This document shows, in pieces, positions 3,558-15,944 of a stretch of DNA of 15,944 bases. Under the pieces are notes generated by a model. The model was given only the letters and a program-made list of their open reading frames with translations. It was not told where the DNA came from and searched no databases. Source of the DNA: a virus (taxonomy: Duplodnaviria > Heunggongvirae > Uroviricota > Caudoviricetes); IMG/VR virus record IMGVR_UViG_2713897073_000008. The stretch is one strand, 5' to 3'. The position numbers and the translations under genes were made by a program. How positions within the stretch are numbered: the stretch's first letter is position 1; every line of letters starts with the position of its first letter.

Positions 3558-3561
3558 TGAA

Positions 3562-3835: not shown

Positions 3836-3862
3836 TGAAAAGAAAAGCCCGCAAAAGCGGGC
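3836..3862 (-). terminator. Putative intrinsic terminator (minus-strand sense): GCCCGC-AAAA-GCGGGC hairpin followed by U-rich tract
   Basis: Plus strand gaaaagaaaaGCCCGCaaaaGCGGGC; on the minus strand the 6-bp GC stem is followed by UUUUCUUUUC. Lies between the tRNA cluster and the holin. Confidence 0.35.
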
Positions 3863-3937
3863 GAAACAATATATACAGTAAGGAAAGCACTCTATCCAAC
3901 AAACCACCCACAGTTAATCGGAATAAAAGCAGAGTGC

Positions 3938-4010
3938 TTATGAATGATCGCCTGCCCGAAGGTTAGTATTTCTGCACAGCAATTTTGCAAAAAAAGGCGA
4001 TCATTCATAA
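3938..4010. repeat. Perfect 15-bp inverted repeat (TTATGAATGATCGCC / GGCGATCATTCATAA) separated by 43 bp
   Basis: Arms at 3938-3952 and 3996-4010 are exact reverse complements. Non-coding region between the tRNAs and the holin. Confidence 0.7.
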
Positions 4011-4069
4011 CTTAAACGTCCTTCAGTCACTCCGGGATTTCCCATCATCGCAGACTGAAAGACTCTGAC

Positions 4070-4144
<75 letters not shown>

Positions 4145-4147
4145 ATA

Positions 4148-4223
<76 letters not shown>

Positions 4224-4225
4224 AC

Positions 4226-4302
4226 TGGACCGCCACCGGGGACTCGAACCTCGCACACTCAACTTAAAGAGTTGACGCTCTTTCCTGATGAGCTAGTGGC
4301 GG
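4226..4302 (-). tRNA. Atypical tRNA-like gene; canonical fold gives anticodon UUU (Lys) with non-canonical C33 (a register shift would give UCU, Arg)
   Basis: Reverse complement CCGCCAC-UA-GCUC-AUCAGGAAA-GAGC-G-UCAAC-UCUUUAA-GUUGA-GUGUG-CGAGG-UUCGAGU-CCCCG-GUGGCGG-U-CCA: 7-bp acceptor stem (C1-G72), 4-bp D-stem with GG in D-loop, 5-bp anticodon stem, T-stem with one A/C mismatch, CCA encoded. Only 2 nt and 1 nt from the neighbouring tRNAs. Confidence 0.55.
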
Positions 4303-4303
4303 T

Positions 4304-4379
4304 TGGTGGCCCTTGCTGGATTTGAACCAGCGACCTGGCGATTATGAGTCGCTCGCTCTCACCACTGAGCTAAAGGGCC
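4304..4379 (-). tRNA. tRNA with anticodon CAU, most like tRNA-Ile2 (lysidine-modified, AUA-decoding; ileX/ileZ type) rather than elongator Met
   Basis: Reverse complement GGCCCUUUAGCUCAGUGGUGAGAGCGAGCGACUCAUAAUCGCCAGGUCGCUGGUUCAAAUCCAGCAAGGGCCACCA; very similar to E. coli ileX as I recall it. Anticodon loop CUCAUAA. Confidence 0.8.
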
Positions 4380-4388
4380 GGGCGCAGG

Positions 4389-4417
4389 ATAATAACGTTA
4401 CGAAATCAATGTTGCAA
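4389..4417 (-). promoter_or_regulatory. Putative sigma70 promoter for the tRNA cluster (-35 TTGCAA, 17-bp spacer, -10 TATTAT), ending about 9 nt upstream of tRNA-Ile 5' end
   Basis: Minus-strand reading TTGCAA(4417-4412) cattgatttcgtaacgt TATTAT(4394-4389) cctgcgccc then the tRNA 5' G. Upstream A/T-rich direct repeats AAAAATCACC x2 at about 4422-4450 could be UP-element-like. Confidence 0.3.
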
Positions 4418-4499
4418 GCATTCAAAAATCACCTGGTTAAAAATCACCCTTATCTCCTCCACCAGCGCATTCACCATGTCTATCCGAGATAAGTGACAC

Positions 4500-4524
4500 A
4501 AAAAAACCCGCTTGATGCGGGTTT
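4500..4524 (-). terminator. Intrinsic terminator on the minus strand (CCCGC-AUCAA-GCGGG + U7); tR'-like, upstream of the tRNA cluster
   Basis: Plus strand aaaaaaaCCCGCttgatGCGGGttt; on the minus strand the hairpin is followed by a 7-U tract. Confidence 0.45.
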
Positions 4525-4644
4525 AAGTTGTGTGGCGAAGCGACCACTCTTAACAGATTAAGATAGTTTTTGCGTACGCGTTAGTGATTTTTTCATAATT
4601 ATCTGTATCCTGTGGCTATTTCTCTTGCGCAAAGGATGCTTTTG

Positions 4645-5523
4645 ATGACGCAGCAACTCGAAAACATGCCAATAACAGAAATCGAAATTGCCTACGGTGG
4701 AGAGGCATACGCAGATAATCAGATCGACGCGAAAACATTAGGCGAAGCCTTAACCTCTCTTAGTGCCCTGATTGAACACGCCGAAAAAATAATTAATGGC
4801 GAAACAGCAGAGCCGAAAGTCAACATCAAGGCAACAAAAGAAGGTTCATTTACTTTGCTTGTTGCTGTGATGGGGAGCATAAAAACTATTAACGCCCTTG
4901 GCCTCGTTGCAGGTGGTGGAGTTGCCGCAGGTGGCGTACTCGGGATAATCGAATGGCTCAAAGGGCGTAAAATCAGCTCCATTGTCGTCGATGAACAAAA
5001 AGATACAGCAGAAATCGAAGTGGATGGTGAGAAGGTTAAATGCAGTAACGACATTCAAAAATTAATAACCAGTCCAATCATCCGAAAAGAACTGGATAAA
5101 TTAATCTATAAACCCCTGCAGACTGAAAAACCATCCACGTTCTCAGTTTCACAGCAGAAGCATAAGGTAGTCAGGGTGACGCAAGCTGAAGCAGTAAGTT
5201 TTAAAACTGCAAAATCCACCTTTGTCGAGAAAACGCACGTAACGACACGCCAAGCTAATGTACATTTTGCTAATGTTCGATTCAAGCAAGGCAAAAGCTG
5301 GGATATCATCCTGCCAAATGGCGAAGAAGTTAGCGCATCTATGAAAGATGAGGCTTTTCTTGAACGGGTTGAACACAACCAAGCAGCATTCTGTAAGGGT
5401 GATCTTTTTGTTGTAGAACTGACAGAAACAACAAAAGAAACAAATGGCGCGCTGTCTAAACCACGCTATAGTATTACTAAGGTTATACGCCACAGAGCGG
5501 CGGCAGATAGGAAACTACTTTAA
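4645..5523 (+). CDS. Hypothetical protein (292 aa from ATG 4645; ORF open from GTG 4612) with central glycine-zipper hydrophobic segment; first gene of AT-rich three-gene operon
   Basis: AAGGA SD 9 nt upstream of ATG 4645. Central FTLLVAVMGSIKTINALGLVAGGGVAAGGVLGIIEWL (GxxxG-rich) flanked by charged, K/T/E-rich soluble regions. Antisense frames carry only short shadow ORFs. No recognisable catalytic motif. Confidence 0.6.
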   Translation: MTQQLENMPITEIEIAYGGEAYADNQIDAKTLGEALTSLSALIEHAEKIINGETAEPKVNIKATKEGSFTLLVAVMGSIKTINALGLVAGGGVAAGGVLGIIEWLKGRKISSIVVDEQKDTAEIEVDGEKVKCSNDIQKLITSPIIRKELDKLIYKPLQTEKPSTFSVSQQKHKVVRVTQAEAVSFKTAKSTFVEKTHVTTRQANVHFANVRFKQGKSWDIILPNGEEVSASMKDEAFLERVEHNQAAFCKGDLFVVELTETTKETNGALSKPRYSITKVIRHRAAADRKLL

Positions 5524-5526
5524 ATC

Positions 5527-5772
5527 ATGTCAATCCTAAGCATTATGCTTTACATCACTGTATTCATGGCTGTCGCAGCGACGGTCAGATATGCTGTGCT
5601 TAGGTTCTTGGTTTGGGTAAAGCCGAATGCGTATATTGAACTAACCTACACCGATCCTGAAGGCAGAACCGCTAAAAGGAAAGTCAGCGTTAGAAACGAA
5701 AATGACGCAGAAGAGTTGGCGCTACTGCTACGCGAACTCAAAACTCGCAACGAAGCAAGTGCAGGAAGGTGA
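5527..5772 (+). CDS. Small membrane protein (81 aa; one N-terminal TM helix, charged C-terminal tail)
   Basis: Starts 4 nt after the upstream stop. ILSIMLYITVFMAVAATVRYAVLRFLVWV hydrophobic helix, then K/R/E-rich tail. Confidence 0.55.
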   Translation: MSILSIMLYITVFMAVAATVRYAVLRFLVWVKPNAYIELTYTDPEGRTAKRKVSVRNENDAEELALLLRELKTRNEASAGR

Positions 5773-6159
5773 ATGGCGAACACTAAATCCTACCTGGCAA
5801 TGCAGGCATGGTTTACCACCCTTATCACTGCGGGATTGAATTTCCTTTTTGACTGGCTTCCTCAATTAGCCTTCTTCAAATCATTGGCGCCTGGAGCTGC
5901 TGTCGGCTTATCTCATGTGGTAATTCTTCTTATCGCTTACATAGGTTTGCCTACGCTTAATGATGTAAGAATGAAAAGGGAAATAAAAACGGCCAGAAAA
6001 TTCATCACGAACTGCCTGGCCAACCCTAACCTAACACCAGACCAAATTGCGCACTACAACCAATGTCTTATCGATCTAGACAATAAGCTATTAAAAAACA
6101 TAAATATTCGTATTGATGCTTTATCTGACGCCGAATCGAAAGCTCAAGCAAACGAGTAG
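5773..6159 (+). CDS. Small membrane protein (128 aa; two predicted TM helices, soluble C-terminal domain)
   Basis: ATG directly abuts the upstream TGA (tgaATG), indicating translational coupling. Hydrophobic helices at about residues 10-32 and 40-62. The stop lies only 13 bp from the convergent Q gene stop. Confidence 0.55.
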   Translation: MANTKSYLAMQAWFTTLITAGLNFLFDWLPQLAFFKSLAPGAAVGLSHVVILLIAYIGLPTLNDVRMKREIKTARKFITNCLANPNLTPDQIAHYNQCLIDLDNKLLKNINIRIDALSDAESKAQANE

Positions 6160-6172
6160 TAACAGTCATAAC

Positions 6173-6529
6173 TTATGATAGAATCAAGCATATACATCCA
6201 TCAATAAAGCCTAATGCAGTTTGCAGCTCCTTTCTTATAGTTCCATCTGAGCACCTGCGTTTCTTCGCGATTGAGCGTAGAGAAACACCAATAACAAAGT
6301 GAGCTATGAGCAGCTCATATTCCTCTGGTTTATACTTTCGCAACCGAGCCACACAACCGTCTATCATGATGCCTTCATCATCATCACACTGGAGACGTGA
6401 CTTTTTGCCATGTGGCAAAAGCCTCTTGAAGCCCGCTGCTATCGGTTGCCAATCGACACCGCTATTTTCTGCTGCAGCCCATGCCCCCCAGCGATCTAAA
6501 ACCTCATACATATCACGCCCCATTACCAT
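6173..6529 (-). CDS. Phage antitermination protein Q (Q82/QuuD-like family)
   Basis: Contains LDRWGAWAA...DW..IAAGFK and the CDDD...C motif I associate with the short Q family of lambdoid prophages. Sits immediately downstream of rusA, the canonical nin-Q arrangement. Start may be an internal Met (6521 or 6511). Confidence 0.7.
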   Translation of the reverse strand: MVMGRDMYEVLDRWGAWAAAENSGVDWQPIAAGFKRLLPHGKKSRLQCDDDEGIMIDGCVARLRKYKPEEYELLIAHFVIGVSLRSIAKKRRCSDGTIRKELQTALGFIDGCICLILS

Positions 6530-6884
6530 CGCCTCTGATTTCGCAAATCTTCACGCCCAGCCGCCCACCAGGAACGAGCTGACCGCGCACAATATTGATT
6601 TCATCAAACTGCTCGTCGTCTATAAGTAGTCCGGCATGCGTCAGCGCATCCAGTGGTGCCTTCAGGATATTGTCCAGGTCGCGGCGGCGCTTATCCGGTG
6701 GCTCTGCAATCACCTTTATCGCCAGCCTTCCGGACAGGCTTAATTTCAGCCGCTGCTGGCGAACAATAAGCGCCACAGCCCGGCGATAACGCTTTCCCTC
6801 CTCCGAGATAAAATATGTGCTGCCACGGCGTCGCCAGTAAGTGTTCACCGTCGGCGGGTAAGGTAAAACCAAATCTATGAGCAT
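6513..6884 (-). CDS. rusA: Crossover junction endodeoxyribonuclease RusA (Holliday junction resolvase)
   Basis: 123 aa with the PDKRRRDLDNILKAPLDALTHAGLLIDD region matching the RusA catalytic core (DxRRRDLDN) and N-terminal PxxNxYWR motif. Position upstream of Q. Confidence 0.85.
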   Translation of the reverse strand: MLIDLVLPYPPTVNTYWRRRGSTYFISEEGKRYRRAVALIVRQQRLKLSLSGRLAIKVIAEPPDKRRRDLDNILKAPLDALTHAGLLIDDEQFDEINIVRGQLVPGGRLGVKICEIRGDGNGA

Positions 6885-6896
6885 CAGTCACCTCTT

Positions 6897-7946
6897 TTAC
6901 CCAAGCACGCCAGTTGCAAAGGCGTGATCAAGAAAACGAAAAATTAAATCAACCTGAGAACCATGCTTTTCTTCGAACGCCAGCGGATCCGCATGAAGCT
7001 CGTTGTGATGCTCCCGACACAGCGGTAGCGTGAAAATATCGTGAGATTTTGTCCCCATTCCGCCCTGACCATGACCAATCAGGTGATGGGGATCGTCGGC
7101 TGGCTTACCACAACACGCACACGGCTGTGTCTTCACCCAGCGAGTGTATTTCTCGTTAACCCAGCGGCGACGTTTAGGTCGTTTCATGAAAGATTCCGGA
7201 GACTCAGGATCAACGGCAATGCTGACCACCGTCTTTTCCTGTGGTGGGTTCTGTTGCTGGTGGGCGTGAGGCAGCGGCGCAAGATTTTTTGTGCGCTGTT
7301 TCAGTATGCTGGTGGCGGTCTGCTCTCCCGGTACGATGTCGCTTTCACGGTACATGGAGCGGATTTTTTCCACACGCAACCCCAGCGAACGACGTAATAC
7401 CGCTTCCGGTAGCGCGTCCGCCACCTGATTGCGGACCGCCCACCAGGATAATTCAGCCAGAGATAATTCACGCTCCTGCGTACCGCTTATTGCGTGACCG
7501 ATGACGTCAATCATCCATGCTGACAGGTTTTGATGAGCAAGTTGCTCGAGTGATTCGGATGTCTGGTCACGCAGCTGGTTGTCGCAGTGCCAGCACAACA
7601 CCATTGCGCCGGTACCATAACGGTGAATGACGGTTTCGCTGTGATGATAATCGCCGTGTGGCCACTGGCAGGATTTAATATGGCGCAACAGCCAGTCAGA
7701 CAATGCACCAGCACCACCAGCAGCACGAATCACCCGCTCATCGCTGAAAAATGGCAGTAATGATTTATCCTCCGCCAGCGGCTGGCGAACGGCAGGAACG
7801 ACCCCGGACGGCAGACCGCGCATGCTTTTTGGCTCCGGTTCAACCAGCACTCTGCCGTTATGGAATACCTGCATGGATTCACGACCTGGCTTAACGATAA
7901 CCACCCCAAGTTCCGGCACCAGAACAGGTCGAAGTAATACCCGCAC
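6897..7946 (-). CDS. Phage nin-region protein, DUF968/YdfU-like with C-terminal Cys/His-rich HNH-like motif (349 aa)
   Basis: C-terminus CACCGKPADDPHHLIGHGQGGMGTKSHDIFTLPLCREHHNELH (CxxC...HH...H...C..HH..H). Size and position upstream of rusA fit the DUF968 proteins of lambdoid prophages. Confidence 0.65.
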   Translation of the reverse strand: MRVLLRPVLVPELGVVIVKPGRESMQVFHNGRVLVEPEPKSMRGLPSGVVPAVRQPLAEDKSLLPFFSDERVIRAAGGAGALSDWLLRHIKSCQWPHGDYHHSETVIHRYGTGAMVLCWHCDNQLRDQTSESLEQLAHQNLSAWMIDVIGHAISGTQERELSLAELSWWAVRNQVADALPEAVLRRSLGLRVEKIRSMYRESDIVPGEQTATSILKQRTKNLAPLPHAHQQQNPPQEKTVVSIAVDPESPESFMKRPKRRRWVNEKYTRWVKTQPCACCGKPADDPHHLIGHGQGGMGTKSHDIFTLPLCREHHNELHADPLAFEEKHGSQVDLIFRFLDHAFATGVLG

Positions 7947-7947
7947 G

Positions 7948-8220
7948 TTACCTCCAGATGCGTTGCTGGAATGTGCGGGACGGACGCGGTGGGCGTTCGG
8001 AATAAGGGAGCCTGACAGAAATTATCCAGTGTCGGAAGTCAGGGCCGAGGTCTTTCTGAAAGTCGTACCCACGCCTGCGGTAGTTCTGAATCAGCCATTC
8101 GGCCTGTTCTTCAGTGCATGGGGCATGCTGGTACCAGTCATATTTGAATGTATGAGAACGCCGCCCGTGCCAGCTGGCAAGGTCGGTATCAGAATTGTGA
8201 TGTTTGGTATTGTGCGCCAT
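7948..8220 (-). CDS. Hypothetical phage protein (90 aa), nin region
   Basis: ORF whose stop overlaps the DUF968 start (ATGA). No motif recognised; start codon choice uncertain (weak SD). Confidence 0.45.
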   Translation of the reverse strand: MAHNTKHHNSDTDLASWHGRRSHTFKYDWYQHAPCTEEQAEWLIQNYRRRGYDFQKDLGPDFRHWIISVRLPYSERPPRPSRTFQQRIWR

Positions 8221-8295
8221 CGGTTTTCTCTGCTGGCGCAGCAGGTGCCAGTTGTTCAGGCTGGCCTGTAGATTGTAAACCAGAATACGTAAAAC

Positions 8296-8317
8296 AAAAA
8301 ACCCGCCGAAGCGGGTT
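8296..8317 (-). terminator. Intrinsic terminator (minus-strand sense) downstream of the HTH-peptidase gene; identical 22-mer to 10131..10152
   Basis: AAAAAACCCGCCGAAGCGGGTT on plus; on the minus strand CCCGC-UUCG-GCGGG followed by UUUUUUGUUUU. Confidence 0.5.
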
Positions 8318-8321
8318 ATGC

Positions 8322-9443
8322 CTAGTGAATTTTGCCTCTAAGAGTTCGGTAAGATTGTAGTGAAACAACATCACCACTTCCTGGCAGTTCATGAACCGCA
8401 GGAAGATCATCTCCTACTAACTCATAAAAAATGTCCACTTCTATATCCATTTCATCAGCTATACGCTGTGGGTCGTATCCTAACTCTTCAAATAAAAACG
8501 ATAAAGCCCGACGGAATAACTCAGGACGCTCATGAGGGATTAGATAATCTTCTTTTTCATCAATAGCTTCCCCTTTCCGTTTCAACCCCATAAATGCAGT
8601 TCTGTACTGCTCATCAGTCAAAAGTCCTAATTGATGAGCCCTGTAAACAATGGCAGCCTTACTTACTTTCCATGTCAACTTAAATTGGCTTAGTCCCTGC
8701 CAATTTATCCTCCCCCCCACAGGTCTTGGAAAATATTTCGCCATCGACGTTCTGGGAAGCAACAGAGCAGAGGCAAAACGGTTTGCCTGGGATTCAGTTA
8801 ATCTATCCCCAGTAGAAATTCCTTCATGAAGAATCAAATGGGCAACCTCATGAGCAATATCAAAGCGTTGCCTACAAGGTGAATTTTTAGCTGTATTTCG
8901 AACAATAAAAGGCCTTCGTAGAGGAACAGACAGTGCATCTACTTCATCCGAAACGGAGTCAAATGAAGTAACAAACGCCCCAAGTTTCTCGGCAAGGCGA
9001 GTCATATTTTCAATTGGGCCAAAGCCTAAGCCCCACTCAATACGACATTTTTCTGCCGCTCGCTCGATATCTTCTTGTGTATGGACACGAAATTCAGGAA
9101 ATCGAACAGGTGACAAATTAAGGTTATCTTCAAATACATCAATAAAACGACGATAAAACTCAGCCTTAGCGAGTGTTGATAGCTTCGTTGACATCCTTGT
9201 CGAGGCGCGTTTACGAAAATGTACAATCTCTTCATTAACAGGAGAATGTTCCTGCCCTTCGAAAAAGGCGGGCTTCACGCGCAAAACCTCGGCTAATTTA
9301 TTTATAAGCTCTGGGGATGGAGTAGCTGAACCAGACTCCAGTCGCTGTACATACTGGCGTGTTTTTTCAACCTTCTCAGCAACCTGCTCCAGAGATAGCT
9401 CGTGATACAGACGAGCAAGTCTTAAATTAGTACCGTTAAACAC
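8322..9443 (-). CDS. XRE-family HTH fused to ImmA/IrrE-type (HExxH) zinc metallopeptidase domain, 373 aa; RosmerTA RmrA-like candidate
   Basis: N-terminal HTH (LSLEQVAEKVEKTRQYVQRLESG) and central HEVAH zinc-binding motif in the context typical of the ImmA/IrrE (M78/DUF955) family. GTG start with GGGTGA upstream, 10 nt after the upstream gene stop. Confidence 0.75.
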   Translation of the reverse strand: MFNGTNLRLARLYHELSLEQVAEKVEKTRQYVQRLESGSATPSPELINKLAEVLRVKPAFFEGQEHSPVNEEIVHFRKRASTRMSTKLSTLAKAEFYRRFIDVFEDNLNLSPVRFPEFRVHTQEDIERAAEKCRIEWGLGFGPIENMTRLAEKLGAFVTSFDSVSDEVDALSVPLRRPFIVRNTAKNSPCRQRFDIAHEVAHLILHEGISTGDRLTESQANRFASALLLPRTSMAKYFPRPVGGRINWQGLSQFKLTWKVSKAAIVYRAHQLGLLTDEQYRTAFMGLKRKGEAIDEKEDYLIPHERPELFRRALSFLFEELGYDPQRIADEMDIEVDIFYELVGDDLPAVHELPGSGDVVSLQSYRTLRGKIH

Positions 9444-9453
9444 ATTTCACCCA

Positions 9454-10047
9454 CTATTTGCTATTTTGTTTCTTTTCCTTCTCAGTCTTAGACGCACTGA
9501 TAGGTTCTAGTTCGATAGGTACCGGTGCTGGAGGTACATCATCGACAGAGTTCAGCATAACAACACGGTCCGCACCATATGTCCAAGTTGACACGATCTC
9601 ACCAAACACGTTATAGCCATTAAAAATGACTCTACCACCCTCGCCTTCAAATTCAGGCTTTTCAACCACAAAGCGATGCATAGTTGGAGTAGTCTCCTCT
9701 GACTCAAAGAGTCGATCAGCATCATTTCTTTTGAAAAAACCGCGTTTCTTGGGGTTATCTGCGTCATCAGTAAAGAAACGAATAGGGACATTCCCAATTG
9801 AAAACGTAAGATCCATGCCAGGATTAAGTAGTCTTAACCAGTCATATGTCTTTCGTACGCACATTTGTAGCAACGCCTGCCGCTGACGCCCAAATGTACA
9901 ACCACCACGAGTGTAATTATCATCATAGGGCGATGACAATAACTCATGAGTAATATCCTGTATCCTGAGCAACTCCTCAGCTATAATGGTTAAACGCACC
10001 TCTGTTAACTCAGGAAAGAACTCCCAAGGGAATGGATGGTTCTGCAT
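9454..10047 (-). CDS. Hypothetical protein (197 aa from ATG 10047; ORF table extends to TTG 10095), upstream partner of the HTH-peptidase; candidate toxin/effector
   Basis: GGAG SD 9 nt upstream of ATG 10047. No TM segment and no recognisable motif. Visibly AT-rich, co-oriented and tightly linked with 8322..9443. Confidence 0.55.
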   Translation of the reverse strand: MQNHPFPWEFFPELTEVRLTIIAEELLRIQDITHELLSSPYDDNYTRGGCTFGRQRQALLQMCVRKTYDWLRLLNPGMDLTFSIGNVPIRFFTDDADNPKKRGFFKRNDADRLFESEETTPTMHRFVVEKPEFEGEGGRVIFNGYNVFGEIVSTWTYGADRVVMLNSVDDVPPAPVPIELEPISASKTEKEKKQNSK

Positions 10048-10082
10048 AGACACTTCTCCGCCTAATCCGTGCAAAAAACGAC

Positions 10083-10128
10083 TTTTGTCAACCAAGATAT
10101 TGGTGCATATTCATAATTTTGTCAACCA
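10083..10128 (-). promoter_or_regulatory. Two direct repeats of TGGTTGACAAAA (each containing a consensus -35 TTGACA) immediately upstream of the 197 aa gene; candidate promoter/operator
   Basis: Minus-strand TGGTTGACAAAA at 10128-10117 and 10094-10083, 34 bp apart, between the upstream terminator and the start codon. Confidence 0.3.
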
Positions 10129-10130
10129 AT

Positions 10131-10152
10131 AAAAAACCCGCCGAAGCGGGTT
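10131..10152 (-). terminator. Intrinsic terminator (minus-strand sense) upstream of the two-gene module; identical 22-mer to 8296..8317
   Basis: AAAAAACCCGCCGAAGCGGGTT; on the minus strand the hairpin is followed by UUUUUUAUU. Would insulate the module from transcription coming from the ParA-like gene. Confidence 0.5.
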
Positions 10153-10497
10153 AAGTGCGGGTGCGTTGAGGATGCCTGACACATCAGAGGTGGCGAGGGA
10201 TTTCTCCCTCGCCTGGTCTCTTACTCCTCAGGTTCGTAAGCTGTGAAGACAGCGACCTCCGTCTGGCCGGTTCGGATTCGTACCTCGCAGAGGTCTTTCC
10301 TCGTTATCAGTACCGCAACAATTTCGTATTCATGATTCATTTCATCTAAAACAGTTCATAAACCTAAATAAATTCAAAAAATCACAACACAAATAAATAT
10401 AAATTATCTCATCCTGAAGAACGATAGGATTATTTAGAATTAATAACAATTAATGTAACAATAATTATCAATCCAGATTATTCAAATAAAATGTCAT

Positions 10498-11544
10498 TTA
10501 CCATATGGAGTTGTGAATGAACTTTAATTCATTTTTTATTTTGTTAACAGATAAATTCACGGATGTCCTAACTCTATTCACAGTCATTGCATCTCCTGGA
10601 TTTAACAACTCTAATGGTTTAGACTTAGCACTTGACATTCTGCCACTACCCAGAAAATCATCAAGAATCACAATGTGATTATTAGGATCATCTGTTGTAA
10701 AATTACTAATATTTTGTCGAATTACCTCTCTTACAGCTTCGATGTACATTTTTGTCTGTTGATTTGGTTTATTCCTTGCTCCTGCCACTGTTGACCATCC
10801 GCAATGGGTAATAACCACCATCTGAATTTTTGGTGTATGGCCATCAGACGGCATTATCTTTCTAAATTCTGATGTTGGTTTAGTCAGAGTATCAATAAGT
10901 AATCTTAATGAATTAATCGATTGCTGATCTGTCCTCACTGGAACTATTAAAGCATCTGTTGCATGCCAAGATAAATGCGTCGCTCCAGAGAAAAAAGGTG
11001 ATGTATCAATTAACGCTTTTGTAGTACCAGTTTCAACCATTTCTCTGGCTATTTCTTTCTTCAGAGAAAAAAGAATTGTATCAATAACAACCTGCTGAGT
11101 AGCCCCAGAAATTGTTCTGGCTTGAGCCAGAGCATTCGCCATTTGCGTAGGTAGAAGATAAAGTTGACTATCAGATTGAATAAAATAGTTATTCTTGCCC
11201 GCAAACCAAGCATTAGTTGATGATACTAGCTTTGCAGCACGCGTTGCAAATCCAAGCCCTGGAACAAAATAAGGCATTAAGAGGTCATTTGCAGTTGTGC
11301 TAGACGAAGATGCATAATTATTGTCAAAAAAATATGATAAATTTCCTTGCGGGCACGTATCCACGATTAATGCGTTATCCGCCAAATATGACAGATTAAA
11401 AGTTAAAGATGTCTTACCAATGCCTCCCCGTAAATTACATACTGTATATTTATCATATTTCGGCAAATTAAGACTTCTTACATTACCGTCAGCAACTTCG
11501 AATTGACGCTCTATCAGAGCATTAACATTTGATTCACTAGTCAT
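10498..11544 (-). CDS. ParA/MinD-superfamily P-loop ATPase-like protein with degenerate signature residues (348 aa)
   Basis: Deviant Walker A-like NLRGGIGKTS (R in place of the signature K of KGGxGKT) followed about 20 aa later by ALIVDTCPQGN (ParA/Soj motif LLIDxDPQGN with D to C), and a later ALIDTSP hydrophobic-D motif. Very AT-rich gene with AT-rich flanks. Confidence 0.6.
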   Translation of the reverse strand: MTSESNVNALIERQFEVADGNVRSLNLPKYDKYTVCNLRGGIGKTSLTFNLSYLADNALIVDTCPQGNLSYFFDNNYASSSSTTANDLLMPYFVPGLGFATRAAKLVSSTNAWFAGKNNYFIQSDSQLYLLPTQMANALAQARTISGATQQVVIDTILFSLKKEIAREMVETGTTKALIDTSPFFSGATHLSWHATDALIVPVRTDQQSINSLRLLIDTLTKPTSEFRKIMPSDGHTPKIQMVVITHCGWSTVAGARNKPNQQTKMYIEAVREVIRQNISNFTTDDPNNHIVILDDFLGSGRMSSAKSKPLELLNPGDAMTVNRVRTSVNLSVNKIKNELKFIHNSIW

Positions 11545-11753
11545 ATCGCCACCATTAGTTTTACACTTTTATTGATGATATGGAAAACTAACCTAGTTGT
11601 CAACAATGGATTAAAAAACAAACACACAAGCGTTTATCAAAAGCACCTTGATTGGTGATACTACCGTGTCTTTCAGCCAAACAGTTCAGTATGTAAAGCG
11701 AATCCAACATCAATTAAGAACGTTTTCAGCGCTCCCCCAGTTGTCTAGATGTC

Positions 11754-11927
11754 AAACTTCATGCGCTCTCCTGTCGAAATAAACGTACTGATTAATCATG
11801 CCCAAGGACATTTCGCGTTTTACAGCGATATCACGGCGGGGAACTCCACACTGATGAAGCTTCCGCACTAGCTCAATATCGCTTTGCGGATGTTTTTTTG
11901 ATTGGTTATAACCCCCCCTCTTAACAT
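11754..11927 (-). pseudogene. Short HTH-like ORF (57 aa from ATG; frame open upstream to about 12018 without a start), probable remnant of a DNA-binding gene; contains a C7/G7 homopolymer
   Basis: Minus-strand translation ...SYAVRAKAQELGINRMLRGGGYNQSKKHPQSDIELVRKLHQCGVPRRDIAVKREMSLGMINQYVYFDRRAHEV*. The GVPRRDIAV...SLGMINQYV segment resembles the C-terminal HTH of serine recombinases or transposase OrfA proteins. Below the 60-aa ORF cutoff. Confidence 0.25.
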
Positions 11928-12028
11928 CCTATTGATACCCAGTTCCTGCGCTTTCGCTCTGACAGCATAACTAGAACGATCAATCAACCCTCCTATGCTT
12001 TCGGCCGTCAACGCGTCTACACAATTGC

Positions 12029-12484
12029 CTAAGCGCCATGATTTCCCTCATGCACAACCTGTTCACCGAATGTCTCTCGAAAACCATTCTGGTAAAATGC
12101 CAGTACACGCTGCATAGCTTCGCTCTTCCGGCACTCGCGACAGATTATGTTCTGACGCCTGTCGTAGCGACGTATTTCTCCGTCAGGTAATGACCAGATA
12201 AGGTCCGGATCAACCGCAGATGGTTTCTTCAGCTTTGCCCTTGAGAGCTTTTTACGGGCATTTTGCCAGTCCTTACGCGCCTGTTCAGACGGGAATAACC
12301 CGTAACCAGAGTTGTATACATCGCCACTGGCAACCAGCTCTCTGGCCAGAACGCTCATCAGATATCTTGTTGCCCCAGTTTTAGTTTCCAGTTGTCGTAA
12401 CGTCTCGCGCCCACTCTGGCGTACGAGTTCAACAACCTGCCCTTTAATTTTTTCCCGCTCTTCTTGTGTAAAAACTTTTGCCAC
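12029..12484 (-). CDS. Hypothetical phage protein (151 aa) in the replication module position downstream of the O-like gene
   Basis: ORF following the initiator gene. Basic, possible winged-helix-like segment (ETLRQLETKTGATRYLMSVLARELV), CxxC pair (CRECRK). No Walker motif, so not a DnaC-type loader. Confidence 0.5.
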   Translation of the reverse strand: MAKVFTQEEREKIKGQVVELVRQSGRETLRQLETKTGATRYLMSVLARELVASGDVYNSGYGLFPSEQARKDWQNARKKLSRAKLKKPSAVDPDLIWSLPDGEIRRYDRRQNIICRECRKSEAMQRVLAFYQNGFRETFGEQVVHEGNHGA

Positions 12485-12524
12485 AAGCCCTCCTGAAAAT
12501 TACCTCATGACCAGAAATTAACAC

Positions 12525-13601
12525 TTACCCCCTGAAGCCCGGCGGAATTTCGTTATCCGGTTCAGAAATATGATTCACACAACGCTGGTTGTTCGTGCCG
12601 CTTACCGGGAGCAACCAGGGGTTCTCAAAATTCCGGTCCGGTCCAAAAAACGTCGTCGCTCGCTGAACAAATTCCGTTCCCGTTTTCCCGGTAGCCGCCA
12701 AGTATCTTGCGTAACGCCTCACGCCATCCAGCATGGCCTCTGGTGGCACCCCCTCGCGTAATCTGGCCTTCCAGGCACTGAAAGCGGATTTCTTCGGGTT
12801 TGCCCCGGCACGCAACGGGTATTCCCGCCAGACCTGTTCGAACACATCAGGATAATCCACTCGTCCCACAGGCTGCCCGGTGTTTTCCGGGACTACCCGA
12901 TCGGCTTCCCGCTGAATGGCGGAATCGGCTTCAGGCTGCTGAAGTTGGTGTGATTGCTCCTGCCTTGCGGTCATCACCTGCTGCACAGCGCCCGAATCGG
13001 CTTTCAGCGCATACGCTGAATCGGCTTCCGGTGTCGTGCCTGCGGGCTGGCCAGGAGTGACGGTCTGAACATCCCCTGCCTGGTTCGTGGCGTTTTTTAC
13101 GCCATGGACCATAGTGTTTTGATCTTCTTGATCTGTATCTTTATCTGTATCTTTATCTGTCGTGACTCGTCGTGACATGTGCGTGACATTTCGTGACTCG
13201 CCGTGACAATCGCCATTTTGTTCCCGCTTTCTTTCCCTCTCTCGCTGCGCCCTCTTGCGCTCTGCCGGAGATTTTGCGGTTTGCGAAATATTGCCGTTGT
13301 CCTCTTTCAGCACCTGGCGTTTTTCCCATCCAGTGATTAAATCACCATCAAGTACCCGCCCCTGCATCGTCTGCAAAATTGAATCAATTACCTCTTCTGT
13401 CACGTCGAGCGCACTTGCCAAATCTTCTGTCGTGACATCAATGTGACCTCGCGTGACATTTCGTGACGCGCTCACCAGGAGGTGGATATACACTGCCATC
13501 ACTGTTGCAATTGGCTGCCCTGACACCCTGGCAATTGTTCGCCACTTAGGGTCATTTGGCATGTCATGCCATAATCTGAGCCAGGCGTTAGCCATACTCA
13601 C
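12525..13601 (-). CDS. Phage replication initiation protein (O-like / replisome organiser), 358 aa, containing ori-like iterons within its coding sequence
   Basis: Position after the Cro/CII-like genes. Low-complexity acidic/KDTD-repeat linker encoded by the iteron and AT-rich repeats. Lambda O similarly contains ori within the gene. Family assignment by synteny and architecture, not by alignment. Confidence 0.55.
   Translation of the reverse strand: MSMANAWLRLWHDMPNDPKWRTIARVSGQPIATVMAVYIHLLVSASRNVTRGHIDVTTEDLASALDVTEEVIDSILQTMQGRVLDGDLITGWEKRQVLKEDNGNISQTAKSPAERKRAQRERERKREQNGDCHGESRNVTHMSRRVTTDKDTDKDTDQEDQNTMVHGVKNATNQAGDVQTVTPGQPAGTTPEADSAYALKADSGAVQQVMTARQEQSHQLQQPEADSAIQREADRVVPENTGQPVGRVDYPDVFEQVWREYPLRAGANPKKSAFSAWKARLREGVPPEAMLDGVRRYARYLAATGKTGTEFVQRATTFFGPDRNFENPWLLPVSGTNNQRCVNHISEPDNEIPPGFRG
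13131..13207. repeat. Ori-like array: 12-bp tandem repeat ATCTGTATCTTT x2.5 followed by five CGTGAC iterons at about 10-bp (one helical turn) spacing
   Basis: CGTGAC at 13161, 13171, 13182, 13192 and 13202. Adjacent A/T-rich 12-mer tandem at 13131-13160. Confidence 0.6.
13399..13467. repeat. Second cluster of CGTGAC / GTCACG iteron-like repeats inside the initiator gene
   Basis: GTCACG at 13399; CGTGAC at 13431, 13452 and 13462; TGTGAC at 13442. TCTGTCGTGAC is shared with the first array. Confidence 0.5.
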
Positions 13602-13666
13602 CTCTTTTGATACCGAATCTTTTTACTCACAAATTGCCGGAAGTGATCCGGTATGAATATTGCGAG

Positions 13667-14092
13667 TCAATGCACAGCCACAATATTTCCTGCAGGGCCA
13701 CCACGATTCATCTGGTTGAAACCAGCGATCGCCACTGCGACAAAATCATCAGCGTCTCTCACCAGTCGTTCCCGCGTCTCCACTAGTTCCCGAAAATACG
13801 CTGAGCTATGACTGCGCATTCGGGCCACCAGCAGAGGTGGCATTGCTTTTTCGATAGCTGGTAACAACGCCTGAATTTTTTTAACCGCATCAGGGGTGTC
13901 TTTCTCCACCCAGCGGAAAATTTTCTGAGTATTGCGAGCCAGGGCTTCCGGATGGCTGTCGTCATACAGTTCCGGGAACGTCATTCCCAGCTCGAAATAC
14001 GCTTTGGTAATTTTCGCAGCCGGTACTTTTTCGCCGTCCGGATGCGCCCAGGCATTCATCGCCATGCGGATGTGTTCATGCTTGATTTTCAT
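13667..14092 (-). CDS. YdaT-like / CII-like phage regulatory protein (141 aa)
   Basis: Second gene of the rightward operon after the Cro-like HTH, overlapping its stop (ATGA). Size and position match Rac YdaT (about 140 aa) and CII-type regulators. No alignment performed. Confidence 0.5.
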   Translation of the reverse strand: MKIKHEHIRMAMNAWAHPDGEKVPAAKITKAYFELGMTFPELYDDSHPEALARNTQKIFRWVEKDTPDAVKKIQALLPAIEKAMPPLLVARMRSHSSAYFRELVETRERLVRDADDFVAVAIAGFNQMNRGGPAGNIVAVH

Positions 14093-14343
14093 GAATCAAC
14101 TCCCATCAGCTTTTTCGTAGTAGTTTTATTCCTGCCAATAGTTAAAATTGCATCGGCAGAAAATAATCCGTTTGATGCAAGAGCGATTTTTTCAGCGTAA
14201 TTTGTTTCGCCGGTATATTCTGTGCGAGGCAATTTTCCGTTATCCATCCATTTATAGATTGCTCTTTGGCTGACACCACAAACGTCGGCCACAACAGCAA
14301 CGCGAACAGTTTTGATTACATCTTCAAGTGTTTTCTGGTTCAT
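14089..14343 (-). CDS. Cro/YdaS-like HTH DNA-binding protein (84 aa from ATG 14343; the longer ORF to 14415 is rejected)
   Basis: GAGGGTG SD immediately upstream of ATG 14343. HTH segment VADVCGVSQRAIYKWMDNGKLP. Divergent from the repressor gene across a 79-bp operator region. Confidence 0.65.
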   Translation of the reverse strand: MNQKTLEDVIKTVRVAVVADVCGVSQRAIYKWMDNGKLPRTEYTGETNYAEKIALASNGLFSADAILTIGRNKTTTKKLMGVDS

Positions 14344-14422
14344 ATCACCCTCACAATGTGAACTTTGAGTACATGCCATAACAGAACTGACAGTACATTC
14401 AAGAGCGAATATCATTGAACTT
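14344..14422. promoter_or_regulatory. Divergent promoter/operator region between Cro-like and repressor genes, with two AGTACAT heptamers 24 bp apart
   Basis: AGTACAT at 14368-14374 and 14392-14398. The repressor ATG has no SD, consistent with a leaderless PRM-type transcript. Confidence 0.4.
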
Positions 14423-14842
14423 ATGGTTCATGAAGATAAAGCGCGTAAAGAGTTCGCCAGTAGGCTTGCGCTAGCCTGTGAAAACGCTGGTTATGAACAA
14501 CATGGAAGGCAGGCAGAAATTGCCCGTCGAATGAAATTAACACCAAAAGCGGTTAGCAAATGGTTTAATGGCGAAACAATTCCTCGCCGGGAGAAATTAA
14601 GGGAATTAGCAACACTAATAGGAACAACACCAACCTATCTTTTGGGAGAGGATACAGAAGAAAGTGGACAGGTACGTTTCTATCAGGAGTTAAATCCAAG
14701 ACAAAAAATCATCATTGACCTTCTGGACGAGCTCCCTGACAGTGAGACAGATGAACTTTTAAAAACTCTTGAAGAGAAAAAACAGAAGTACAATGCAATT
14801 TACGAAGAGTTAGCACGAAAGAAAAAACAAAAAGCCTCTTAA
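14423..14842 (+). CDS. XRE-family HTH prophage repressor (cI/RacR-like, 139 aa) without a recognisable S24 peptidase domain
   Basis: N-terminal HTH (QAEIARRMKLTPKAVSKWFNGETIP), K/E-rich C-terminus. Divergent from the Cro-like gene; no obvious SD (leaderless-like). Confidence 0.7.
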   Translation: MVHEDKARKEFASRLALACENAGYEQHGRQAEIARRMKLTPKAVSKWFNGETIPRREKLRELATLIGTTPTYLLGEDTEESGQVRFYQELNPRQKIIIDLLDELPDSETDELLKTLEEKKQKYNAIYEELARKKKQKAS

Positions 14843-14917
14843 ACCAGCATAAATCCGGTAGCGCCTTCCTCCGGGTTTGTGCTTCACTTTATCCCATCTC
14901 ATTTTTTTACACACAAA

Positions 14918-14958
14918 ATGTACTAAAAGTACTTTACAACAATGAACGCAAAGTACAT
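14918..14958. promoter_or_regulatory. Operator-like cluster downstream of the repressor gene: ATGTACT (inverted), AAGTACT and AGTACAT heptamers; candidate PL/OL-type region
   Basis: aaaATGTACTaaAAGTACTttacaacaatgaacgcaAAGTACATtat; the same heptamer family as in the 14344..14422 region. Confidence 0.35.
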
Positions 14959-15139
14959 TATATGCCTACCACCCACCCCGCCCCACAGAATGCAGGGCAA
15001 TACTTCGAGTTACCAAGCAGTGGTCAGGGGTTAAGTAGCCAGCCCGAGGCGTAAGAACATGACGGCAGGGTTCAACTTTAATAACTATGCAGCAGGTTTT
15101 TGTTCCGCTACCCCGGCGTTAAGGGGAAATGAGGTCAGC

Positions 15140-15295
15140 ATGGATACTATCGATCTTGGCAACAGCGAATCTCTGGTATGTGGCGTGTTCCCCAACCAGG
15201 ACGGTACGTTCACCGCGATGACGTATACCAAAAGCAAAACGTTTAAAACCGAAAATGGTGCCCGTCGCTGGCTGGAAAGAAACTCAGGTGAGTGA
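15140..15295 (+). CDS. Small early-left operon protein (51 aa; Rac YdaF-like position)
   Basis: GAGG SD 5-8 nt upstream of ATG 15140. The longer ORF from 15059 lacks an SD. Confidence 0.5.
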   Translation: MDTIDLGNSESLVCGVFPNQDGTFTAMTYTKSKTFKTENGARRWLERNSGE

Positions 15296-15296
15296 T

Positions 15297-15425
15297 ATGG
15301 ATTTCGACACAATCATGGAAAAGGCTTACGAAGAATACTTCGAAGGCCTTGCCGAAGGCGAAGAAGCTCTCAGCTTCAGCGAATTTAAACGGGCGCTTTC
15401 CAGCTCGGCAAAATCTAACGGCTGA
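15297..15425 (+). CDS. Small acidic protein (42 aa), translationally coupled to the upstream gene
   Basis: tgaTatg junction with GGTGAG SD inside the upstream gene end. MDFDTIMEKAYEEYFEGLAEGEEALSFSEFKRALSSSAKSNG. Below the ORF-table cutoff; the competing 15292..15501 frame is Arg-rich and implausible. Confidence 0.4.
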   Translation: MDFDTIMEKAYEEYFEGLAEGEEALSFSEFKRALSSSAKSNG

Positions 15426-15454
15426 TAAGCGAAACAGCACCGCGAGGAATCAGT

Positions 15455-15673
15455 ATGCAGAAACGAGAACCCGTCATCATCGCGCCAGACTATACCGATG
15501 ATGAGCTTTATGAGTGGATGCGCCAGAAAATTAAGGCCGCGCAGGACCTGAAATGGGCCAATGAAGCCAAGGCTAAGCAGGCTGAAAATCTGTCCGCTCT
15601 GGAGCAGGATATCACCAATTTGGAAAAAGCAGCGGCATTAAGCATTGCCAGAATGATTACATACCCACGTTAA
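15455..15673 (+). CDS. Hypothetical phage early protein (72 aa)
   Basis: GAGGAA SD 4 nt upstream of ATG. Coiled-coil-like K/A/E-rich sequence. Confidence 0.55.
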   Translation: MQKREPVIIAPDYTDDELYEWMRQKIKAAQDLKWANEAKAKQAENLSALEQDITNLEKAAALSIARMITYPR

Positions 15674-15695
15674 TAGCTAACCAACGAGGCTAATA

Positions 15696-15944
15696 ATGGA
15701 ATTTAAAGATTTACCAATGCAATTCCAGGAAATGGCAGCGAATATAGTTCGTTCCCAACTGGCGACTCTTGACCTGAGTACCGTAGAAAAAGAAACCATC
15801 GATACTATATCCGGTAACGTGCGTCGTGCCTTTATCGGTCTGTACGAAGAGAAGCAGCTCTCTGATAACCAGGATTTACATGAAAAATACCTCCTGGAAT
15901 TAATGGATATCATTGATAAGGGGTTTGGCGGTAATGACTCCAAC
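15696..15944 (+). CDS. Hypothetical phage early protein, 5' partial (83 codons, continues beyond window end)
   Basis: ACGAGG SD 6 nt upstream of ATG 15696. Frame open to the window edge. Preferred over the antisense ORF 15677..15943, which is Ser/Cys/Arg-rich. Confidence 0.5.
   Translation, partial: MEFKDLPMQFQEMAANIVRSQLATLDLSTVEKETIDTISGNVRRAFIGLYEEKQLSDNQDLHEKYLLELMDIIDKGFGGNDSN

Follow-up and report, generated by a model that had tools for sequence, protein, structure and literature searches.

ATPases of the ParA/MinD family are the textbook partner-dependent positioning machines. Type Ia ParA proteins such as P1 ParA and F SopA also repress their own promoters by binding an operator, and a type Ib par centromere can also serve as the operator. 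Orphan ParA proteins have been described as well: ParI (PP_3700), encoded without ParB by a gene of ~1.1 kb on a genomic island of P. putida KT2440, destabilises IncP-7 plasmids in a Walker A-dependent manner. BcsQ, another relative, is a weak ATPase that forms an ATP-bound sandwich dimer by default and carries a cysteine, numbered C39, in its active site (PMC7840130). The closest characterised relative of the protein described here is GiPD474 (STM474_RS13505), a single-gene phage defence of the Gifsy-1 prophage (Bosma, Noireaux and Bowden, AEM 2025, PMC12724215). GiPD474 alone lowers the plating of T4, Alf5 and FO1, by ~5 logs for T4 and Alf5, and its family, delimited by those authors at a minimum of 70% identity and coverage, has been reported in Enterobacteriaceae (PMC12724215).

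By contrast with the partner-dependent machines, the RGG-CPQ clade of ParA/MinD-like ATPases does without a partner and travels via prophages, islands and small plasmids. Its member in the window (the whole 15,944-nt stretch of DNA analysed here) is encoded by an intact ORF (Table 1), the product of which matches the Pfam family AAA_31 above threshold (39.3 bits, cut-off 27) and PHROG_164, ‘ParA-like partition protein’, at 2.8e-30. An earlier note on this DNA had recognised ParA-family landmarks in the translation, and these stand, the first of them reading NLRGGIGKTS when residues 37 and 38 are included. An AlphaFold model (pTM 0.83) has McdA, Soj and ParA as its top Foldseek matches, with probability 1.00 to McdA, Soj, ParA, BcsQ and FlhG. 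TM-scores against McdA and Soj/ParA are only 0.42–0.53 (on query) because of insertions at residues 70–125 and 225–265 together with a C-terminal hairpin. As modelled, the protein carries the alpha/beta fold of the ParA/MinD (SIMIBI) P-loop ATPase superfamily. About 30 residues, forming one helix, precede the P-loop strand in the model, and a Pfam search found no HTH family and no recognisable HTH or RHH domain in the 348 residues. Curated models of characterised relatives fell well below threshold, both for partition ParA (NF041546, 25.6 against a cut-off of 180) and for the BcsQ equivalog of NCBIfam (TIGR03371, 31.4 against 157.85, through the N-terminal motif only). The accession WP_000200161 does not occur in the literature searched, nor does ‘ParA’ in the text of the P2/P4 hotspot paper.

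The active site departs from the ParA consensus at two positions, as the earlier note had proposed. An HMMER alignment with T. thermophilus Soj pairs R39 with K15, K44 with K20, D62 with D42 and C64 with D44, which places both substitutions at catalytically relevant positions and shows that the motifs are not mis-assigned. The canonical signature lysine (xKGGxGK[ST]) is absent from the sequence LRGGIGKT, and the water-activating aspartate (Soj D44, MinD D40) is absent from VDTCPQGN; Soj D44 is the residue mutated (D44A) in the hydrolysis-dead 2bek structure. Arg39 and Cys64 are both invariant in 28/28 diverse homologues, the IDTSPFFSG block containing Walker B is likewise invariant in the clade alignment, and the RGG motif and the cysteine are retained down to ~30% identity. 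Because the two residues do not vary among such diverse homologues, the substituted active site is, by these alignments, an invariant hallmark of the clade and not a one-off degeneration.

The search for relatives recovered 706 homologues; a single-protein search of genome contigs found one locus, and the viral and metagenome scans were run with an alignment instead. The clade is compact, with the signature xLRGGxGK[TS] plus DxCPQ and 55–65% identity kept between phyla. At E≤1e-30 its profile retrieves only 44 representative clusters, and PDB chains of ParA, Soj and McdA score between 1e-3 and 1e-6 with the same profile. On these comparisons and the substitution rates that follow, the RGG-CPQ clade is a discrete, uncharacterised group on which purifying selection is very strong, matching that on a housekeeping gene. 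Between the window gene and an Enterobacter allele, dN/dS is ~0.02 at a dS of ~1.4, and none of the 13 E. coli genomes that carry the gene has a broken reading frame. A dN/dS of 0.02 combined with 60% cross-phylum identity is unusually conservative for an immune gene and would be compatible with a protein that interacts with a universal host component.

Across the clade, the gene keeps no constant company. For the window gene, RefSeq has no ParB annotation within 26 kb. Over 56 lineages, no neighbour family recurs (clustered ORFs of at least 60 aa, ±4 kb), and Pfam annotation of the immediate neighbours and of all ORFs within ±5 kb gives a heterogeneous set with no recurring partner. Conserved small ORFs are likewise absent within ±800 nt (stop-to-stop segments of at least 25 aa), and no bcs genes lie nearby. 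Neither the window nor a 5.9-kb Aeromonas plasmid carrying the gene contains a centromere-like repeat array; each has only two boxes, which overlap the promoter. Plasmid carriage is rare (5 of 72,556 plasmids), and the two plasmids examined each have, besides this gene, a separate small parA next to a gene of 80 aa. The earlier note described a ParA-like NTPase that is divergent and stands alone, a piece of prophage cargo with neither a ParB-like partner nor, in essence, a plasmid context. This description survives the comparison, in which homologues are not consistently paired with ParB or centromere repeats. Judged by its sequence and surroundings, the window protein is not a partition ATPase.

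The elements that carry the gene are varied. Many copies occupy small chromosomal islets without a replicon, and many loci sit on elements with a circular phase. The latter include integrase-bearing islands that also encode NikA and TrbL, with the gene beside proA on the side away from the integrase, loci with relaxase, TraG and replicase neighbours, and the 5.9-kb Aeromonas plasmid. In phage RsoM1USA the gene adjoins attP and the integrase, and in a phage-borne branch at ~35% identity it closely follows a cI/LexA-type repressor, a placement shared by GiPD474. In its summary output, PADLOC identified Gabija, type III CRISPR-Cas, type IIG R-M, MADS, PDC-S05 and PDC-S13 as defence neighbours at individual loci, which lends weak support to a defence role. 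A recognised defence gene lies within 5 kb at a minority of loci, and many copies are found among ordinary chromosomal genes. Searches of the protein against PADLOC-DB 2.0 models gave no credible match, with marginal partial matches to PRTase and ShosT (E 1e-4 to 4e-3). The scarcity of defence-flanked loci, the want of a PADLOC 2.0 model match and the distance to GiPD474 (24% identity) count against a defence reading.

What does accompany the gene is its own promoter with a pair of palindromic boxes, overlooked by the earlier note. Two convergent copies of about AATTAGTTTTACA, 11–14 bp long, bracket the promoter at fixed spacing. A pair is present in 24 of 49 lineages, 17 with a spacing of 27 bp and 7 with one of 48/49 bp. 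The expectation from shuffled sequences averages 0.05, and no such pair is seen in flanks lying downstream or further upstream. The 15.9-kb window contains two perfect copies only, plus one site with a single mismatch that is within chance expectation. The same arrangement is found on the Aeromonas plasmid. Conservation of the box pair suggests, at the level of sequence, that the gene represses itself. The two arms of a pair resemble each other more than they resemble the arms of other lineages (0 of 10,000 permutations reach the observed value). We down-weighted this covariation as proof of protein–DNA co-evolution, since box flavour tracks the GC content of the gene and mutational bias could account for part of it. 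Homology with the Enterobacter allele at the DNA level sets in precisely with the –35 hexamer (11603) and goes no further than the stop codon. Because the homology has these limits, the mobile unit is, on this alignment, promoter plus ORF: a one-gene cassette with its own putative operator.

Table 1. Position of the ATPase gene, its active-site motifs, its control signals and the surrounding insert (window coordinates)
Feature	Position	Strand	Basis
ParA/MinD-fold ATPase gene, RGG-CPQ clade, 348 aa	10498..11544	(-)	Intact ORF, ATG start
Deviant Walker A, RGGIGKTS, residues 39–46	11407..11430	(-)	Alignment to Soj K15/K20; Arg39 for signature lysine, cis lysine K44 retained
Walker A'/switch I, ALIVDTCPQGN, residues 58–68	11341..11373	(-)	D62 retained, Cys64 for water-activating Asp
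Walker B, ALIDTSPF, residues 176–183	10996..11019	(-)	D180 invariant; aligned with Soj and McdA Walker B segments
Sigma-70-type promoter, TTGACA-17-TATCAT	11575..11603	(-)	Promoter scan; 11/12 consensus matches
Putative left operator box TTAGTTTTCCA, within promoter spacer	11581..11591	(-)	Inverted-repeat pair I2
Putative right operator box TTAGTTTTACA (+ strand reading), between –10 hexamer and RBS	11555..11565	(+)	Convergent with left box
Shine-Dalgarno-like GGTGG	11549..11553	(-)	4 nt upstream of ATG; direct sequence reading
AT-rich cargo insert, ~1.4 kb, holding the cassette	10341..11750		GC profile; stretch only in 13 genomes

In E. coli, the cassette resides in an integrated lambdoid prophage that adjoins potC and encodes cI/cro, a replisome organiser, DUF977, DUF968, RusA, Q, an integrase and an excisionase. 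Among the 5,426 complete genomes of E. coli, 13 have this prophage stretch, which is carried by some enterotoxigenic strains. GC content falls to 0.32–0.39 across ~10250–11750, compared with 0.48–0.57 in the flanks, in agreement with the AT-rich island described earlier. The insert is bordered by a frameshifted remnant of a phage DNA-binding-protein gene and a 5'-truncated hokD; positions 11768–12010 resemble a phage DNA-binding gene at 67–78% identity. A sibling prophage has QueH and an intact hokD in the same slot. The gene thus occupies a variable cargo slot of the lambdoid prophage, one that adjoins the RosmerTA defence system (rmrT, 9454–10095; rmrA, 8322–9443). An Rfam scan of the gene and its surroundings found nothing, neither a Sok/hok RNA nor a riboswitch.

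We propose that the window protein is an autoregulated, slowly hydrolysing ATP switch that serves as a one-gene anti-phage or anti-element factor, a reading drawn from sequence and analogy to which we give a little less than an even chance. By homology, ATP binding would bring two subunits together in a sandwich dimer, and hydrolysis would either be slow by nature or need a partner to set it off, given Arg in place of the trans-acting signature lysine and Cys in place of the water-activating Asp, as in BcsQ. The protein would bind both boxes and repress its own promoter, and could thereby hold its level constant in any host; we infer that it is the protein itself that binds because the boxes accompany the gene across phyla and no other gene does. 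That neither an HTH nor an RHH domain can be recognised counts against the proposal. Its service to the prophage or host would be the exclusion of incoming phages and, more broadly, of foreign replicons, as suggested by the nearest characterised relative, GiPD474, and by the positions of the gene in moron or immunity regions. The defence or exclusion role raised in the earlier note thereby gains a published precedent, though in a distant relative. By the same analogy, an exclusion or defence factor appears more likely than a DNA-segregation protein.

A segregation role could nevertheless take the form of a one-protein maintenance module, in which the protein would bind its boxes as a minimal centromere and, as an ATP-bound dimer attached non-specifically to the nucleoid, would tether an excised or episomal element for inheritance. 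Such a device would make sense of boxes that always accompany the gene in a fixed geometry and of the many loci on elements with a circular phase (the NikA/TrbL/integrase islands, the loci with relaxase, TraG and replicase neighbours, and the Aeromonas plasmid), and the type Ib par loci offer a precedent for a combined centromere and operator. Yet the boxes number only two and overlap the promoter, neither the window nor the small plasmid having any more; the few plasmids that bear the gene include two, those examined, already equipped with parA and a small adjacent gene; and the many copies in chromosomal islets have no replicon to segregate. We therefore regard this module as unlikely; were it correct, a DNA tether of this kind would be a one-protein segregation device. 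Slightly less probable is an incompatibility factor in the manner of ParI, an orphan ParA interfering with the ParABS systems of plasmids or phage-plasmids that enter the cell. ParI shares the stand-alone, island-borne layout and does destabilise IncP-7 plasmids, but the likeness is one of description, the Walker A motif of ParI is the canonical KGGVGKS, disturbance of a single partition system would leave near-identical proteins across phyla unaccounted for, and E. coli has no chromosomal ParABS. We consider improbable, too, an ATP-dependent transcription factor that regulates prophage or host genes and has its own operator as one target among several: the window holds no further good copy of the box beyond the chance-level site with one mismatch, and the hosts share no common regulon.

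Two other accounts seem to us extremely improbable. The position of rmrT and rmrA, just downstream and on the same strand, could make the ParA-like protein a third component or regulator of RosmerTA; however, the truncated hokD and an intrinsic terminator separate the gene from rmrT, the Enterobacter homology ends at the ParA-like stop codon, and RmrT/RmrA are neighbours in 1 of 56 lineages, in E. coli only, so that a third-component role is not supported. The deviation of two catalytic-site residues from the ParA consensus might equally be expected of a decaying parAB remnant with an inactivated ATPase, but both residues are clade-invariant at a dN/dS of 0.02, no E. coli copy has lost its frame, and the promoter and putative operator are conserved; these conservation data effectively refute decay.

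If the protein is instead, as we favour, an anti-phage or anti-plasmid factor, there would be several implications. It would be a very compact, host-independent addition to the defence catalogue, would give leverage on the mode of action of GiPD474, and would account for the recurrence of a BcsQ-like ‘locked’ active site among ParA relatives. More broadly, the RGG-CPQ clade might be a one-gene module for immunity or exclusion that is new and spans phyla, and might form, with GiPD474, a hitherto unrecognised ParA/MinD defence branch marked by the Asp-to-Cys change, an extension by analogy that we regard as possible but doubtful. Part of the same reading, and put forward with equal diffidence, is the idea of an ATP switch that, without a classical DNA-binding domain, would read the palindromic site to set its own level and would block invading phages or replicons unaided.

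Several known systems bear comparison with the window protein. McdA and Soj/ParA, the type Ib-like positioning ATPases, are its best structural and profile matches, and McdA also lacks the signature lysine (SGGQGKT); these proteins need McdB or ParB/Spo0J partners, whereas the window gene has no partner gene. Type Ia ParA proteins have an N-terminal HTH domain of ~100 aa and always occur with ParB and a centromere, all three of which are missing here. Were the window protein to bind the box pair that brackets its promoter, it would resemble type Ia proteins in repressing its own gene. ParI resembles the window gene, by description, in being a stand-alone gene on a horizontally acquired island or prophage, but has KGGVGKS where the window protein has RGGIGKTS. 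The two active-site substitutions recur in BcsQ, where R10 takes the place of the signature lysine and C39 that of the water-activating Asp, the aligned segments being RGGVGTT...VDACPDN in BcsQ and RGGIGKT...VDTCPQGN in the window protein. In contrast to the window protein with its K44, BcsQ has no cis Walker lysine (T15), its turnover is raised by the R156E change, and it is a 250-aa, BcsR-dependent regulator of enterobacterial cellulose secretion encoded in the bcs operon, as against 348 aa here.

GiPD474 scores 50 bits, compared with 22 bits for a canonical small ParA. The two proteins align at 24% identity over the N-terminal 210 residues, the C-terminal third remaining unaligned, and hhalign gives 97.7% probability for the N-terminal two thirds only. 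This identity is far below that used to delimit the GiPD474 family, and the two fall into separate clades in a bit-score matrix; the window protein is therefore not a member. A GiPD474 knock-out primer arm matched IMG/VR prophages and had no match in E. coli genomes or isolated phages. Anti-phage activity is reported for GiPD474 only. GiPD474 also retains the signature lysine (WNNKGGVGKT) where the window protein has Arg; the window clade has putative operator boxes and none are known for GiPD474; and the window clade spans several phyla, whereas the GiPD474 family is reported within Enterobacteriaceae. Nevertheless, both are AAA_31 proteins of ~350 aa with a ParA/Soj/MinD fold, carried as prophage cargo without a partner gene, and GiPD474 adjoins a cI-type repressor, as does the 35% branch of the window clade. 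Finally, the two proteins share the Asp-to-Cys change in DxCPQxN, together with similar IDxxPxF...T.L and IIP..D..SI blocks.

The ParA-like ORF encodes a protein of 348 residues that contains NLRGGIGKTS and ALIVDTCPQGN. In the ParA-type profile search suggested by the earlier note, this protein matches Pfam AAA_31 (39.3 bits; cut-off 27) and scores below the thresholds of the CbiA and BcsQ models; PHROG_164, annotated as ‘ParA-like partition protein’, is also hit, at 2.8e-30. When the protein is aligned to T. thermophilus Soj with HMMER, R39 falls opposite K15 (the signature lysine), K44 opposite K20, D62 opposite D42 and C64 opposite D44. The ParA motifs were therefore correctly assigned, and Arg does replace the signature lysine and Cys the Asp, as proposed from the sequence alone. 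Soj structure 2bek is a D44A mutant, with VDLAPQGN at the position aligned with C64. An AlphaFold model built with 28 homologues as input (pTM 0.83) has the ParA fold. Foldseek ranks McdA, Soj, ParA and BcsQ as its closest structures; TM-scores on the query reach only 0.42–0.53, owing to insertions around residues 70–125 and 225–265 and to a C-terminal hairpin plus helix.

Almost all of the 706 homologues are 342–350 residues long, and those from Burkholderia, Massilia, Desulfovibrio, Sulfurovaceae, Mariprofundales and Magnetococcales share 62–65% identity with the E. coli protein. Among 28 diverse members, R39, G40–T45, D62, T63, C64, P65, Q66 and D180 are invariant, as are several longer stretches, among them IDTSPFFSG, PVRTD and residues C248, W250 and T252 of the THCGWST segment. 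When 1.84 billion representatives were searched with a profile, just 44 clusters reached E ≤ 1e-30, and many of these were fragments; the same profile matches ParA, Soj and McdA chains in the PDB no better than E 1e-3 to 1e-6. The group is thus a discrete clade, which we call RGG-CPQ after its RGG Walker A motif and the Cys of DxCPQ. Members as distant as ~30% identity still have this motif and the Cys, and an Enterobacter allele that is 83.7% identical to the window gene in nucleotides and 95.7% in amino acids gives a dN/dS of 0.020 (dS ~1.4). Given this invariance and strong purifying selection, R39 and C64 are constrained hallmarks of the clade rather than products of decay.

In its E. coli host, the gene resides in a lambdoid prophage adjoining potC, and the interval 10100–12030, comprising the gene and its flanks, is 99.8–100% identical in 13 of 5,426 complete E. 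coli genomes, mainly human and porcine ETEC. Both the AT-rich island (GC 0.32–0.39 versus ~0.50–0.57 in the flanks) and the status as prophage cargo were correctly recognized earlier: a sibling prophage carries QueH and an intact hokD in the same place, so this is a variable cargo slot in which the cassette (ORF, own promoter and two convergent boxes) is an insert of ~1.4 kb. A phage DNA-binding gene remnant, 67–78% identical to intact genes of other E. coli prophages and phage-plasmids, marks the insert's right edge. At the truncated hokD, an Rfam scan detected neither Sok nor hok RNA; a complete RosmerTA anti-phage system (8322–10095, −) lies directly downstream of the cassette.

Features of the cargo slot, listed in minus-strand order
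Feature	Coordinates	Strand	Remarks
cro / YdaT, then replisome organiser, then DUF977		−	
Phage DNA-binding gene remnant (‘DNA-binding protein / sigma-70 region 4-like’)	~11768–12010	−	Frameshifted; two short ORFs, 47 and 38 aa
Left box TTAGTTTTCCA	11591–11581	−	Convergent pair around the −10 hexamer
Right box TTAGTTTTACA	11555–11565	+	Convergent pair around the −10 hexamer
ParA-like gene	10498..11544	−	Between the remnant and hokD
hokD, 5′-truncated	10221–10340	−	Intrinsic terminator 10135–10152 kept; RefSeq pseudogene; peptide end ...LITRKDLCEVRIRTGQTEVAVFTAYEPEE
RmrT of RosmerTA	9454–10095	−	PADLOC 7e-92
RmrA of RosmerTA	8322–9443	−	HTH and M78 peptidase; PADLOC 4e-201
DUF968, then RusA, then Q		−	

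Several other features of the window deserve mention. A perfect 13-bp direct repeat, TTTTGTCAACCAA (TTGGTTGACAAAA on the minus strand), occurs at 10083–10095 and 10117–10129, 34 bp apart, in the gap separating the hok terminator from the start of rmrT; it could serve as the promoter of RosmerTA or as an operator bound by RmrA, the HTH antitoxin. Four prophage tRNA genes (Gly/Thr/Lys/Ile in RefSeq) cluster at 4073–4379 (−) between holin and the Q region, and an Rfam IS009 match at 41–244 (−; 129 bits, gathering score 117) overlaps a tail-fibre-assembly-like ORF at 1–267. The ten closest complete genomes match the window in two pieces spanning ~21.3 kb. In strain 99-3165, 3247–15944 is collinear and 1–3246 maps ~5.4 kb further off (break ~3246/3247), so a terminase-to-lysozyme segment present in those genomes is absent from the window.

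The gene is solitary. In the assemblies that were read, it sits within a ParE/PaaA2 islet in B. pseudomallei and near small ORFs and HicA in Desulfovibrio; Enterobacter copies adjoin CbtA/CbeA or proA, the latter next to NikA-like, TrbL and integrase genes. For the neighbour analysis, 134 homologue loci were grouped into 56 lineages at 90% identity. Pfam searches of the nearest neighbours and all ORFs within ±5 kb returned a mixture of housekeeping, integrase, transposase, conjugation, toxin–antitoxin and phage genes and no ParB, and a ParG- or omega-like partner is excluded because stop-to-stop segments of at least 25 residues within ±800 nt hold no common small protein. No neighbour family recurs except a cI/LexA-type repressor (HTH_3 plus Peptidase_S24) just upstream in seven lineages, a phage-borne branch at ~35% identity. 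In this branch (L033–L054, IMG/VR prophages; L135, Ralstonia phage RsoM1USA), the gene lies directly 3′ of the repressor and lacks the TAGTT boxes described below; RsoM1USA is the only one of 50,697 phage genomes with a relative, which adjoins attP and an integrase gene, with a DUF3800 gene next. On plasmids the gene is rare (five of 72,556, every one from Aeromonas), and the two that we looked at encode, in addition, a distinct parA of 214 aa with an 80-aa gene behind it. On Aeromonas veronii plasmid AP022266.1 (L138; 5,942 bp, six genes), the ParA-like gene (345 aa) has its own promoter, flanked by boxes, and lies on the strand opposite the canonical 214-aa parA and 80-aa gene. The earlier statements that there is no ParB-like partner and essentially no plasmid context thus hold, the search for conserved neighbours proposed in the earlier note yields the repressor alone, and a partition role is not supported.

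The earlier note missed the promoter–operator cassette. The E. coli and Enterobacter alleles are homologous at the DNA level from 11603 to the stop codon, and a promoter scan shows that 11603 opens a near-consensus promoter, TTGACA-17-TATCAT. The box motif, ~(A/T)A(T/C)TAGTT(T/C)(T/C)(A/C)C, is found again 5′ of the gene in lineages of different phyla. Convergent boxes are separated by exactly 27 bp in 17 of 49 lineages; in seven others the distance is 48 or 49 bp, longer by two helical turns, and there the left box is 5′ of the −35 hexamer. Shuffled sequences gave a mean of 0.05 lineages with such pairs, and downstream and further-upstream flanks gave none. In the window, and in the 27-bp lineages whose promoters were read (L067 and the Aeromonas plasmid), the left box overlaps the −35 hexamer or sits in the spacer of the promoter; it is untranscribed there and is therefore a DNA site rather than an RNA hairpin. 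The Aeromonas copy has the same layout as the window, with no further boxes on that plasmid. Arms match at 11.0 of 16 positions within a lineage versus 9.4 of 16 between lineages, a result reached in 0 of 10,000 permutations; variable positions track gene GC content, and arm-to-arm similarity may partly reflect mutational bias. Because no other gene travels with the ParA-like gene and its boxes, the most economical proposal is that it would bind these candidate sites as a protein and repress its own gene; a domain search recognized no HTH domain in it.

At 24 operator-pair loci (for example, L117, L006, L065, L103 and L113), the gene usually exceeds its surroundings in AT content (for instance, GC 0.33 versus 0.59, or 0.40 versus 0.61–0.65), with the reverse at a few (L125, L122 and L124), a pattern that fits either repeated transfer in recent times or an AT-richness inherent to the gene.

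Our favoured but tentative reading, at slightly less than even odds, is that the cassette would encode an autoregulated ATP-dimer switch that hydrolyses slowly, binds its own boxes and works on behalf of its mobile element as a single-gene factor against phages or replicons. Defence genes (Gabija, type III CRISPR-Cas, type IIG R-M, MADS, PDC-S05 and PDC-S13) lie near several other loci, and many loci are without a recognized defence neighbour. Extreme conservation and many plain chromosomal contexts fit an immune gene poorly, leaving room for a protein that acts on some universal component of its hosts or that tethers DNA. The earlier interpretation is partly supported: the stand-alone, divergent ParA-like cargo without a partner survives, and the ‘substituted’ residues are not signs of decay. 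The cassette is a cheap, well-defined experimental target.

The possible defence role of an autoregulated switch finds its closest parallel in GiPD474, a single 361-aa gene of the Gifsy-1 immunity region with a ParA/Soj/MinD fold and AAA_31 domain, which reduces T4 and Alf5 plating by ~5 logs and also restricts FO1, in Salmonella and E. coli (PMC12724215). Its sequence, taken from an IMG/VR prophage found by a published knock-out primer arm, contains WNNKGGVGKT...VVIDACPQSN, and thus shares the Asp-to-Cys change with the window protein but keeps the signature lysine. The two are 24% identical over 210 residues (E 3e-11), and hhalign pairs the N-terminal two thirds with 97.7% probability. In all-against-all comparisons, the WNNKGG (GiPD474-like) and RGG groups match each other at 40–85 bits, versus just 18–32 bits for both against canonical small ParA; they are sister groups in a ‘CPQ’ branch, not one family. 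GiPD474 also lies directly 3′ of a CI-type repressor, as does the 35% branch of the window clade. The cellulose secretion regulator BcsQ has the same Arg and Cys pair (RGGVGTT...VDACPDN); its Cys replaces the catalytic water-activating Asp, its Arg turns away from ATP, and it is a weak ATPase whose default state is an ATP-bound sandwich dimer (PMC7840130). The window protein could likewise be a slow ATPase; it keeps the cis lysine, which BcsQ lacks. Finally, ParI, an orphan island-borne ParA of P. putida with a canonical Walker A, destabilises IncP-7 plasmids and is a second functional analogue.
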